Positions 56,049 to 56,605 of a stretch of 64,000 nucleotides of DNA are shown here, piece by piece (position 1 is the first letter of the stretch; the number at the start of each line of letters is the position of its first letter). Origin of the DNA: Patescibacteria group bacterium (GTDB lineage: Bacteria > Patescibacteriota > Minisyncoccia > Phycocordibacterales > SIBU01); NCBI GenBank assembly GCA_040390045.1, contig JAZJZC010000002.1:37113-101112 (forward strand). Reading direction: 5' to 3'. The translations under genes were made by a program, and so were the position numbers. The notes beneath the pieces are model-generated. The model was given only the letters and a program-made list of their open reading frames with translations, had not been told where the DNA came from and did not search any database.

Positions 56049-56185
56049 GGAGAGGTGTCAGAGTGTTGAATTGCGAAGGCTTGGAGCAATTCAAGGCCGG
56101 AGTCCGACGGGACGAGGCGGGGTCGCGAGATTCGCCAGTAGGCGAATACTTGTGACCTAATGTGCAGCTTTTAAAGCTGCAACGG
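56049..56185 (+). pseudogene. tRNA-Ser-derived 5'-half element carrying a ~90-nt insert in the D-loop (E1)
   Basis: ggagaggtgtcagag-[56064-56153 insert]-gacctaatgtgcagc-ttttaaa-gctgc matches the first 45 nt of the adjacent tRNA-Ser but has no variable or T arm. Confidence 0.5.
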
Positions 56186-56227
56186 AAGTTTTGAAACGAG
56201 GCATAAAATAATTAAATACATAATATT

Positions 56228-56316
56228 GGAGAGGTGTCAGAGCGGTCTAATGTGCAGCTTTGCTAAAGCTGTGAGCCCCTTAAAAGGCTCCGAGGGTTCG
56301 AATCCCTCCCTCTCCG
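56228..56316 (+). tRNA. tRNA-Ser (anticodon GCU), long variable arm
   Basis: Acceptor ggagagg/cctctcc, anticodon arm cagct-ttgctaa-agctg, variable arm gagcc-ccttaaaa-ggctc, T arm gaggg-ttcgaat-ccctc, discriminator G. Confidence 0.85.
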
Positions 56317-56367
56317 CAATGAACCGCAAGAAAGTCTAAATGACTTTCGCGCGGCTCATCATTGCGT

Positions 56368-56605
56368 GGAGAGGGAGGGATTCGAAAGACGGAATCCGCC
56401 TTCGGCGGATGAGTCGGGGTCGCGAGTACTTAGGCTTTTGTTGGTCCGCCGCGGCGGACAACAAAAGACTTAGTAACTTGTGACCGAATCTCGATTCGAA
56501 CAGCGGAGCGAAATTTTTACTAAAAAATTTCGCGAGCTGGTGCCCAGACCAAAATTTTCGACGGAAAATTTTGAGTCGCGGGAGAAACTCCCTCCCTCTC
56601 CGCCA
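56368..56605. other. structured tRNA-Ser-derived element E3, bounded by ggagagg ... cctctcc-g-cca
   Basis: Termini equal the tRNA-Ser acceptor strands. Contains the UUCG hairpin ccgccttcggcgg, a 16-bp hairpin, and the module cggggtcgcgag..acttgtgacc shared with E1. Strand undetermined. Confidence 0.5.

Follow-up and report, generated by a model that had tools for sequence, protein, structure and literature searches.

RNAs that mature via a tRNA-like structure include MALAT1/mascRNA, the gammaherpesvirus tRNA-miRNA (microRNA) units, and the plant tRNA-snoRNA and yeast tRNA-5S dicistrons; in such units a non-tRNA RNA depends on tRNA transcription and acquires its ends through RNase P or RNase Z. 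Transfer-messenger RNA (tmRNA), including its two-piece form, builds an acceptor stem and T-stem from the ends of a larger RNA, contains a long structured insertion, terminates in N-CCA, and is processed by the tRNA machinery. YrlA, a bacterial non-coding RNA (ncRNA) whose gene adjoins rsr, combines a tRNA-like acceptor/T region, with mimics of both the T-loop and the D-loop, with another structured domain. Here we analyse a stretch of 64,000 nt from a Patescibacteria group bacterium (assembly GCA_040390045.1, contig JAZJZC010000002.1, positions 37,113 to 101,112, forward strand; hereafter "the window"), in which a tRNA-Ser(GCU) gene is followed by a structured element, E3, bounded by an antisense and a sense copy of the 3' end of this tRNA, and preceded by a related sequence, E1. 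Our comparative analysis identified E3 as a member of a family that is apparently widespread and undescribed; we found no description of such elements in the open-access literature.

The E3 locus is organised as follows (coordinates are those of the window; R1 is a covariance model (CM) built from other genomes, without window sequences):

56228-56316, + strand: tRNA-Ser(GCU) gene, the host of E1 and E3 (ARAGORN; Rfam RF00005, 50.6 bits)
56317-56367, + strand: spacer between the tRNA and E3, an imperfect palindrome at the apex of a ~90-nt inverted repeat
56368-56386, + strand: E3 5' arm, with copies of the acceptor 5' strand (56368-56374) and of the T-stem 5' strand (56375-56379), then AUUCGAA (56380-56386)
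56387-56492, + strand: E3 core unit A, module type (R1 48.0 bits, E = 1.8e-12; covariation on alignment A2)
56493-56588, + strand: E3 core unit B, a second, more diverged module-type core (R1 33.4 bits, E = 4.5e-8)
56589-56605, + strand: E3 3' arm, which repeats the tRNA 3' end directly (T-stem 3' strand, acceptor 3' strand, discriminator G), then encoded CCA

An earlier note on this DNA, made without database searches, had placed the tRNA gene at the same coordinates, on which ARAGORN and Rfam agree, and had described E3 as starting with the acceptor 5' strand and ending with cctctcc-G-CCA, which our repeat analysis confirmed. The inverse T-loop/T-stem that it reported near the 5' end of E3 is an exact antisense copy: GGAGAGGGAGGGATTCGAA (56368-56386) is the reverse complement, in 19/19 nt, of TTCGAATCCCTCCCTCTCC (56297-56315), i.e. 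of the last 19 nt of tRNA-Ser(GCU) before the discriminator. The opposite end, TCCCTCCCTCTCC-G-CCA (56589-56605), repeats 15 nt of the tRNA 3' end in direct orientation and then has CA; where this arm encodes CCA, the tRNA-Ser(GCU) gene itself has CAA. Over 13 bp the ends of E3 are perfect inverted repeats of each other, which gives a closing helix. As a whole, E3 is a single arm pair around two tandem module-type cores, its 5' arm missing the P2 hairpin usual in the family (see below), and its fold is well separated from those of shuffled sequence (z = -10.4). The acceptor/T helix, discriminator and 3' CCA of an aminoacyl-minihelix all have counterparts in E3 (13-bp helix, G and CCA). Unit A comprises a helix P4 (GAC/GUC), an internal loop GGA/GA, a hairpin hpA with a UUCG loop, a hairpin hpB (GGUCGCGAG/CUUGUGACC, with two G·U pairs) and a terminal GAAU, while unit B opens with a direct repeat of GATTCGAA-NAGCGGA and has its nearest relative in locus L017 (loci collected from other genomes are designated by L and a number). 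The UUCG hairpin had been spotted before and lies at 56396-56412; the 16-bp perfect hairpin also claimed for E3 was not recovered, as perfect hairpins there measure 10-11 bp and the long one has 17-nt arms with 88% complementarity. What had been missed is that the tRNA 3' end, the spacer and the 5' end of E3 make up one ~90-nt inverted repeat, and that the same kind of element follows the three other tRNA-like genes of the window. The spacer hairpin (56317-56367) is not terminator-like here and gave spurious miRNA-like matches in Rfam.

Several minor features surround E3. An open reading frame (ORF) of 145 aa at 56336-56773 on the minus strand runs antisense to it and is probably spurious. The sequence right after E3 (56602-56622) is GCCAGATTACCAAGTTTGAAC, and a near-identical one, GCCAGATTGCCAAGTTTGAAC, follows the element of a Yonathbacteria genome (L055), where the upstream gene differs from that of the window in spite of the shared post-element sequence; GCCAGATTACCAAGTTTGAAC may belong to the E3 RNA or to its terminator. 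E1, the tRNA and E3 are together bracketed by a perfect inverted repeat of 10 nt, TGGTAATCTG / CAGATTACCA (56000-56009 and 56604-56613); neither L055 nor L124 showed it, and it may be due to chance.

Members of the family lie on the same strand as the tRNA or tmRNA gene, directly past its trailer or terminator hairpin, and are 100-240 nt long. Read along the tRNA strand, an element consists of the acceptor 5' strand, usually a hairpin of ~23 nt (P2), the T-stem 5' strand, AUUCGAA, a core of 47-115 nt, (C)GAAU, the T-stem 3' strand, the acceptor 3' strand and the discriminator, with or without CCA. Because the 5' arm repeats the 5' acceptor and T-stem 5' strands of the neighbouring tRNA, usually split by P2, and then has AUUCGAA, it is antisense to the tRNA 3' end, which the 3' arm copies directly from the middle of the T-loop (GAAU) onwards, often with CCA. 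Pairing of the arms gives P3 (the T-stem plus AUUC/GAAU) and the acceptor-like stem P1, which together close the core into a mimic of the top half of tRNA, often ending in N-CCA. Each module carries one or two exchangeable cores of at least three types, termed module (with the internal loop GGA/GA and a hairpin that contains G·U), GUAA (UACUG, then a GUAA hairpin) and beta-proteobacterial mini. We considered and rejected the idea that P2 is a copy of the long variable arm of tRNA-Ser, as P2 is also found behind Arg, Glu, Leu, Val and Ile tRNAs.

This architecture is shared in part with tmRNA, in which the acceptor and T-stem likewise come from the ends of a larger RNA with a structured insertion, but the elements lack a T-loop, having AUUC/GAAU as an extension of the T-stem, as well as any D-loop mimic or tag reading frame, their arms copy the upstream tRNA, and they are tied to tRNA genes, one of them standing behind the tmRNA gene itself. 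The tmRNA models of Rfam gave only a partial match of 16.6 bits to permuted tmRNA (threshold 47), over the tRNA 3' end. Units of the MALAT1/mascRNA type are eukaryotic or viral and do not combine antisense and sense copies of the 3' end of a neighbouring tRNA, and in the family described here the tRNA and the module usually have a terminator between them. Processing by tRNA enzymes, known for tmRNA and for these units, may extend to the elements. Neither YrlA nor any other Y-RNA family was detected by Rfam at any threshold, and no Ro-type gene occurs among the scanned neighbouring ORFs. More generally, the Infernal/Rfam search recommended in the earlier note called the host tRNA and no family for the elements: at gathering thresholds, the window and 18 loci yielded only tRNA, tmRNA and one signal recognition particle (SRP) RNA, and permissive E-value scans of all three element regions revealed no known family, the weak match to sX4 (25.7 bits versus a threshold of 70) being uninformative. 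E1, E3 and the second serine element, E3b, are not scored as tRNA by RF00005 even at E <= 10, canonical scores being limited to 56228-56316, 61800-61886 and 51832-51904.

Since E3, E3b, an element behind tRNA-Ile and an inverted copy behind tmRNA were all found, each of the four tRNA-like genes in the window (4/4) is followed by an appended element. The additional three loci are:

61800-61887, + strand: tRNA-Ser(ACU), second host gene (ARAGORN, Rfam)
61888-61927, + strand: spacer after tRNA-Ser(ACU), a terminator-like hairpin at the apex of the inverted repeat with E3b
61928-62059, + strand: E3b, GUAA-type element of 132 nt (repeats; fold z = -7.7; alignment A3 with covariation)
51832-51905, + strand: tRNA-Ile(UAU), third host gene (ARAGORN, Rfam)
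51922-52067, + strand: module-type element after tRNA-Ile (R1 48.4 bits, E = 1.3e-12, match span 51952-52059; nhmmer match)
46976-47377, - strand: tmRNA, fourth host gene (ARAGORN, Rfam)
46885-46904, - strand: tmRNA-associated remnant, inverted copy AGAGATGGGGAGAATTGAAC (T-loop/T-stem 12-mer, 0 mismatches)

From 5' to 3', E3b reads GGAGAGA, the P2 hairpin, GCGAG-AUUCGAA, a long hairpin P4, UACUG, P5 with its GUAA loop, GAA and CUCGC-UCUCUCC-G, and the predicted fold of the isolated element is P1-P2-P3-P4-P5. Its arms (GGAGAGA / GCGAG) match tRNA-Ser(ACU) and not tRNA-Ser(GCU). E3b has the features of the GUAA type and aligns with 15 elements from other genomes, in which P3, P4 and P5 covary. 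The Ile element reads GCGCGCG, P2, GGAGGGGCUCGAA, core and GAGU-CCAAG-CACGCGC-A, with a partly decayed 3' arm; its T-loop/T-stem 12-mer has 1 mismatch to tRNA-Ile. Behind tmRNA, just past the terminator, AGAGATGGGGAGAATTGAAC repeats the T-loop, T-stem and acceptor 3' strand of this gene in inverted orientation and is trailed by ~200 nt of hairpin-rich sequence. We also noted that the ORF at 46175-46900 (minus strand) begins within this inverted copy of the tmRNA 3' end (ATGGGGAGAATTGAAC...); its true start is probably an ATG near 46665.

The cores show the marks of selection at the RNA level. In the beta-proteobacterial set (n = 23) the RNAalifold consensus holds P2, P3 (T-stem plus AUUC/GAAU), hpA and hpB, with compensatory changes in 21/32 pairs and one G·U pair kept in 21 of the 23 sequences; a hand tally of pair types gave ~40 G·U against 7 A·C. 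As G·U pairs far outnumber A·C and one of them is conserved, the structure must be one that is read on the tRNA strand. In the module type we found P3, a strongly covarying 3-bp P4, the invariant GGA/GA loop, hpA, and hpB with its G·U, C-G, G·U motif; 85.5% of the cells are paired, compared to 34-42% when the partners are slid, and 0/500 shuffles reached the observed covariation. The GUAA type has P3, P4, UACUG and a 5-bp hairpin with a GUAA loop, with compensatory changes in 10/16 pairs. The R1 model detected not only both units of E3 and the Ile element but also E1 (29.2 bits). A gene on the minus strand was considered and rejected, as only the plus strand has the conserved G·U pairs and the GUAA loops of GNRA type. 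Taken together, the covariation and the G·U pairs specific to one strand demonstrate that selection acts on a single-stranded fold of the tRNA strand.

These data bear most directly on the possibility that the elements are non-functional debris, i.e. scars of integration or excision at tRNA genes, or decaying tRNA pseudogenes, whose hairpins are coincidental. Direct repeats of tRNA 3' ends are classic remnants of attachment (att) sites, many copies have decayed arms, and E1 is clearly rearranged and missing from a syntenic relative. Yet four or five helices covary, conserved junction nucleotides and G·U pairs are retained in different phyla, a CM from other phyla finds the window copies at E-values from 1e-12 to 1e-7, the scanned ORFs include no integrase, and integration does not produce an inverted arm into which a conserved hairpin is inserted. 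We therefore regard debris as a most improbable explanation, one that for the family as a whole appears excluded by the covariation, while for E1 taken alone it is possible.

We propose, at a probability of roughly 40%, that the elements are stand-alone tRNA-like RNAs, made by read-through from the tRNA promoter and by the tRNA-processing enzymes, with a functional junction core and homogenised arms. According to this proposal, the module would be transcribed from the tRNA promoter by read-through and would fold into the acceptor/T-like helix, RNase P could then cut its 5' end, and the 3' end could be trimmed and CCA-tailed as in tRNA, leaving a discrete stable RNA. The conserved three-way-junction core would be the working part, most likely a platform for protein binding, and the arms would be kept identical to the neighbouring tRNA by quasi-palindrome correction and gene conversion rather than by sequence-specific selection. 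Of the three interpretations offered in the earlier note (tRNA-like minihelix ncRNAs, intron-like insertions and scars of an integrative element) the first comes closest: the acceptor/T-like helix and the internal covariation stand, and so does a bias in the 3' end, as among Patescibacteria (candidate phyla radiation, CPR) the 3' arm encodes CCA in 7/23 elements next to a tRNA gene without CCA, while only 4/53 of the tRNA genes in these loci encode it; this suggests that a tRNA-like 3' end matters in some lineages. What does not hold in general is the helix, which is decayed in ~40% of an unbiased sample. In that sample, of beta-proteobacterial elements among the matches listed, 49/78 end in the acceptor strand plus GCCA, and the acceptor-like helix is perfect in 22/78, as compared to 6% in the null.

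Four observations weigh against the proposal of stand-alone RNAs. Around 90% of the spacers (106/118) look like intrinsic terminators and no promoter-like site precedes the elements (promoter scans upstream of them gave nothing convincing), so that expression of the elements would depend on read-through. The 3' acceptor copy is intact in only ~56-63% of the unbiased beta-proteobacterial sample, and decayed cases keep the match between the 5' arm and the tRNA; since the copy is so often decayed, P1 and the CCA end are not universally required. The lowest-energy fold of the tRNA-element co-transcript is domain-swapped: the tRNA 3' end pairs with the element 5' arm across the whole spacer, and the tRNA 5' acceptor and T-stem strands pair with the element 3' arm. 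Finally, the type of core and even its presence vary at orthologous loci of a relative, and tandem and decayed copies occur.

The domain-swapped fold is what would be expected of a cis-acting three-part switch on the tRNA precursor, in which region 1 is the tRNA 3' end, region 2 the antisense 5' arm and region 3 the sense 3' arm. The 1:2 duplex would remove the tRNA 3' half from the cloverleaf and might be a target of RNase III, while 2:3 pairing would give P1/P3 and set the tRNA free; folding of the core, or a factor bound to it, would decide between the two and thereby control maturation or disposal of read-through tRNA precursors. The 5' arm is indeed complementary to the tRNA 3' end in nearly all cases, and remains so where the 3' copy has decayed (among decayed cases the 5' arm pairs better with the tRNA copy in 10 and with the third copy in 2, with 9 equal), the inverted repeat usually spans the whole spacer, and predicted co-transcript folds take the 1:2 duplex with the tRNA 5' half swapped onto region 3. 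However, in ~90% of loci a terminator lies between regions 1 and 2, and most tRNA transcripts would therefore never contain region 2; quasi-palindrome correction at the DNA level can explain why the inverted arm persists, with no need for a function as RNA, the switch has no known ligand or factor, and neither the enrichment of CCA nor the conservation of P2 is accounted for. We consider a switch distinctly unlikely.

The phylogenetic distribution of the family was estimated with two patterns. The public scans relied on exact motif matches, and the prevalence and range of tRNA types given here are accordingly rough. The architecture pattern (the tRNA-Ser 3' end, after 30-60 nt an inverted acceptor strand, and after a further 5-35 nt ATTCGAA) matched both Ser loci of the window and no shuffled sequence, and revealed at least 120 loci in species-representative genomes; in nearly all of the matches listed, one tRNA-Ser gene, whatever its isoacceptor, precedes an inverted copy of its own 3' end. 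We rejected the explanation that two convergent tRNA genes share a terminator, as ARAGORN found a second tRNA in only a few loci. The second pattern, which is independent of the acceptor and describes the conserved hpB hairpin of the beta-proteobacterial type, revealed at least 120 loci in metagenomes; among the matches listed the upstream tRNA is Ser(CGA) in 24, Ser(GCU) in 16, Ser(GGA) in 11 and Glu(UUC) in 7, and the 25 loci without a nearby tRNA are mostly tandem or degenerate units. Carriers among the matches listed include Saccharibacteria, Paceibacterota and other Patescibacteria, Elusimicrobia, Holophagaceae, Nitrospirae, Clostridia, Oxalobacteraceae/Burkholderiaceae (Massilia, Duganella, Janthinobacterium, Herbaspirillum, Burkholderia, Cupriavidus) and Gammaproteobacteria including Thiodiazotropha.

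A census of 273 tRNA/tmRNA genes in the collected loci, in which Ser and Glu are inflated by the choice of loci, detected a downstream inverted copy of the gene's own T-loop/T-stem behind 169/207 tRNA-Ser, 10/15 tRNA-Glu, 3/12 tRNA-Arg, 2/4 tRNA-Leu, 1/2 tRNA-Val, 1/3 tRNA-Ile and 1/1 tmRNA genes, and behind 0/7 tRNA-Ala, 0/6 tRNA-His and 0/3 tRNA-Pro; as a control, such a copy lies upstream of 12/263 genes. For an estimate free of this choice we turned to the bystander non-Ser tRNAs of Patescibacteria loci, 8/16 of which carry an element. An nhmmer profile made without window sequences gave 17 matches in ~1.6 Mb, all 53-176 nt behind a tRNA on the same strand; E3 units A and B and the Ile element lie within the same distance of their tRNAs, and no copy away from tRNA genes was found among these profile matches.

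Some of the collected loci deserve a separate comment. In Holophagaceae (L020, L042, L112) a different core of ~150 nt (GUCACUGAAAUGCUGGCAGG...GGAGGGAAUCCC) lies past the inverted tRNA-Ser arm and is followed by a second, truncated unit of terminator plus inverted arm. In a Nitrospira metagenome-assembled genome (MAG; L005, 429-528) the SRP RNA gene lies ~100 nt past the tRNA-Ser element, which makes three RNA genes in a row. In L126, an NCBI MAG, a gap of 100 N (~2600-2700) falls exactly over the core of the tRNA-Ser element, between 38-nt direct repeats. Masking was rejected as a cause; as the N run is exactly 100 long, it is an ordinary assembly gap. Direct repeats of 38 nt probably break short-read assemblies, and the elements may therefore be under-represented in MAGs.

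The direct repeats and the variable occupancy of loci recall mobile elements. At both Ser loci of the window the tRNA 3' end is directly repeated over 15 nt, as in att-type duplications, and in relatives the repeats are longer, often running past the tRNA into the trailer or terminator (38 nt in L124, up to 54 nt elsewhere), which points to ongoing duplication or gene conversion. Duplications made by tyrosine integrases, and integrase-less cis-mobilisable elements, show the same direct repeat from the T-loop, sometimes into the trailer; here, in contrast, the "insert" is only 100-240 nt long, has no integrase, is not found on phages or plasmids, carries an extra inverted copy with a conserved hairpin and has a covarying interior. 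One could nevertheless imagine P2 and the core as a selfish, non-autonomous unit with a single-stranded intermediate (RNA or DNA), which would dock at the tRNA T-loop/3' end, behind the terminator as a safe haven, and duplicate the tRNA 3' end, the hairpins serving as mobility signals rather than in any cellular role. The att-like repeats that start in the T-loop (CGAAT) would fit, as would the tandem arrays and truncated units, the variation of core type and presence at orthologous loci, the occurrence of the same cores behind different tRNAs with arms adapted to each, and the core of E1 inside a D-loop. Horizontal spread is suggested by identical P2 hairpins in L032 and L049, which are labelled as two different Patescibacteria lineages, and by L053 and L076, which are labelled as belonging to different phyla and whose cores look very similar by eye.

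Several results are difficult to reconcile with such a mobile cassette. No integrase or recombinase was detected among 10 ORFs of the window and 10 ORFs downstream of elements in other loci, nor any transposase or reverse transcriptase among the same ORFs; the genes downstream of elements are ordinary (metK, pyrF, a sodium:solute symporter, a response regulator and others), and the interval between direct repeats (170-290 nt) holds no cargo on the kilobase scale. Phage collections gave no match, plasmids a match to the tRNA part only, and 2.9 million viral contigs a single match, and a phage or plasmid origin is accordingly not supported. Profile matches in ~1.6 Mb include no copies away from tRNA genes, arms that match the host exactly, the inverted one included, fit no known integration chemistry, and about half of the bystander tRNA genes carry an element even in Patescibacteria genomes of ~1 Mb. 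We regard a mobile cassette as unlikely, although it is the chief competitor of the proposal of stand-alone RNAs. Of the att-like repeats and the integrase that the earlier note suggested looking for, the former are thus present at both Ser loci and the latter was not found in the scanned ORFs. Its third interpretation, a scar of an integrative element, is not supported in view of this absence, of the phage and plasmid searches, of element size, of covariation across phyla and of the occurrence of elements at Ile, Arg, Glu, Leu, Val and tmRNA genes, and an integrated island was likewise rejected for want of an integrase in the scanned ORFs. REP/REPIN, PATE and MITE sequences are, like the elements, small, hairpin-rich, strand-asymmetric, intergenic, sometimes tandem and fast-evolving, but they are dispersed genome-wide, whereas the elements were found only behind tRNA genes, with arms specific to the tRNA of the locus; dispersed hairpin repeats are also contradicted by the module motifs, which occur only at E1 and E3 in 64 kb. 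A primer-binding site of the retroviral type was rejected too, as the inverted arm is interrupted by P2 and, in genomes without encoded CCA, corresponds to the genomic trailer rather than to the mature CCA end.

A broader view, which we consider somewhat doubtful, is that tRNA genes in many bacteria are docking sites for exchangeable RNA cassettes that clone both strands of the 3' end of the host tRNA. Such cassettes would be present at roughly half of Patescibacteria tRNA genes and would form a new type of mobile or regulatory element, one that acts by mimicking the 3' end of tRNA and lacks a dedicated protein gene alongside. A locus could then switch between a tRNA with a separate tRNA-like RNA and either a split tRNA or one whose T-loop holds a giant insertion.

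E1, upstream of tRNA-Ser(GCU), is an exception to the downstream placement of the family. Its parts are:

56049-56063, + strand: E1 5' part, an exact copy of nt 1-15 of tRNA-Ser(GCU) (acceptor 5' strand and start of the D-arm; direct repeat)
56066-56094, + strand: E1 hairpin UUGAAUUGC...GCAAUUCAA (fold; CM alignment)
56082-56166, + strand: E1 module-type core (R1 29.2 bits, E = 8.5e-7; alignment A2)
56157-56185, + strand: E1 3' part, a copy of the 3' side of the tRNA D-loop and of the anticodon arm (direct repeat)

Its description as a copy of the tRNA 5' half with an insert in the D-loop proved accurate: 56157-56171 is identical to tRNA 56247-56261, and the two exact 15-nt copies are separated by an insert of 93 nt. 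The anticodon-like hairpin GCAGCTTTTAAAGCTGC is shortened by 2 nt, as noted before, the deleted bases being GC of the anticodon, and both the T arm and the acceptor 3' strand are missing. The module said to be common to E1 and E3 was likewise recovered, the motif pair GGGGTCGCGAG ... ACTTGTGACC occurring exactly twice in 64 kb, in these two elements only. The E1 core has P4 (GCC/GGC), the GGA/GA loop, a short hpA, an hpB stem identical to that of E3 unit A and a terminal UAAU, and the fold of E1 has z = -5.6 relative to shuffled sequence. The 3' side of its hairpin aligns with a degenerate version of the family's T-stem 5' strand plus AUUCGAA. In place of an antisense 5' arm E1 has tRNA nt 1-15 in sense orientation, together with a degenerate motif, AUUCAA, and the closing helix P3 is unformed, its positions being non-pairs in the CM alignment; the join ...GACC-UAAU resembles both the ...GACC-GAAU of the family and GGUC-UAAU of the tRNA.

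As to conservation in relatives, which the earlier note proposed to examine, the family covaries across phyla, while E1 itself is absent from the syntenic relatives L124-L126. These share with the window the cytochrome b5 gene (61% identity), its neighbour gene, RecG and tRNA-Ile(UAU), and have a single GUAA-type element after tRNA-Ser(GCU) and none detected after tRNA-Ile. The contig with the closest homologue, L123, has no tRNA on it, and conservation of E1 was rejected on these grounds. Since its core lies in a partial copy of the tRNA 5' half and since it is missing from syntenic relatives, E1 is best read as a lineage-specific rearranged copy, probably a decaying by-product in which a core recombined into the D-loop of a partial tRNA 5' half.

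The anatomy of E1, with a core in the D-loop of a partial tRNA copy, and the lowest-energy co-transcript fold are the two points in favour of the intron-like insertions suggested in the earlier note; no group I or group II intron family was detected in Rfam at gathering or E-value thresholds, and complete, uninterrupted tRNAs are present. Introns in tRNA genes have been described in the same phylum, where they are located in the anticodon loop (PMC13011429). They too are structured RNAs tied to tRNA genes, and the co-transcript fold resembles a tRNA with a large insertion, but these introns have a group I catalytic core, whereas the elements have cores of 47-115 nt and are preceded by a complete tRNA.

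If the elements are functional RNAs, a large family of structured RNAs with at least three core types has been overlooked in many phyla, beside some of the best-studied genes, and may flank about half of the tRNA genes in the genome-reduced Patescibacteria. The family bears on the processing of tRNA precursors, on the concerted evolution of tRNA flanks and on tRNA 3' ends as hot spots of recombination. It also has consequences for annotation, as seen in the spurious ORFs over elements (e.g. 56336-56773 on the minus strand and the N-terminus of 46175-46900) and in the assembly gap at one element. As the family is also found in the easily grown and tractable Massilia, Duganella, Herbaspirillum, Burkholderia and Cupriavidus, its function is directly testable.

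Other genes of the window include those for SmpB, FtsH, RecG and pilins. The small genes 3' of E3 (56669-59512) have no Pfam match except for Hypoth_Ymh (PF09509) at 57997-58791. The region 50001-52000 has a GC content of 0.52, compared to 0.39-0.47 elsewhere in the window, and contains two GC-rich ORFs without assigned function (50041-50436 and 50583-51746); a 387-aa gene occupies the same position in L124. tRNA-Ile(UAU) is found both in the window and in relatives (L124, 6190-6264; L116), and in L124 its orientation with respect to RecG is reversed and the downstream element is missing. An unmodified A34 is unusual for bacteria. The coexistence of tRNA-Ser(ACU) with tRNA-Ser(GCU), seen in the window, recurs in the Saccharibacteria locus L017 and in L116.

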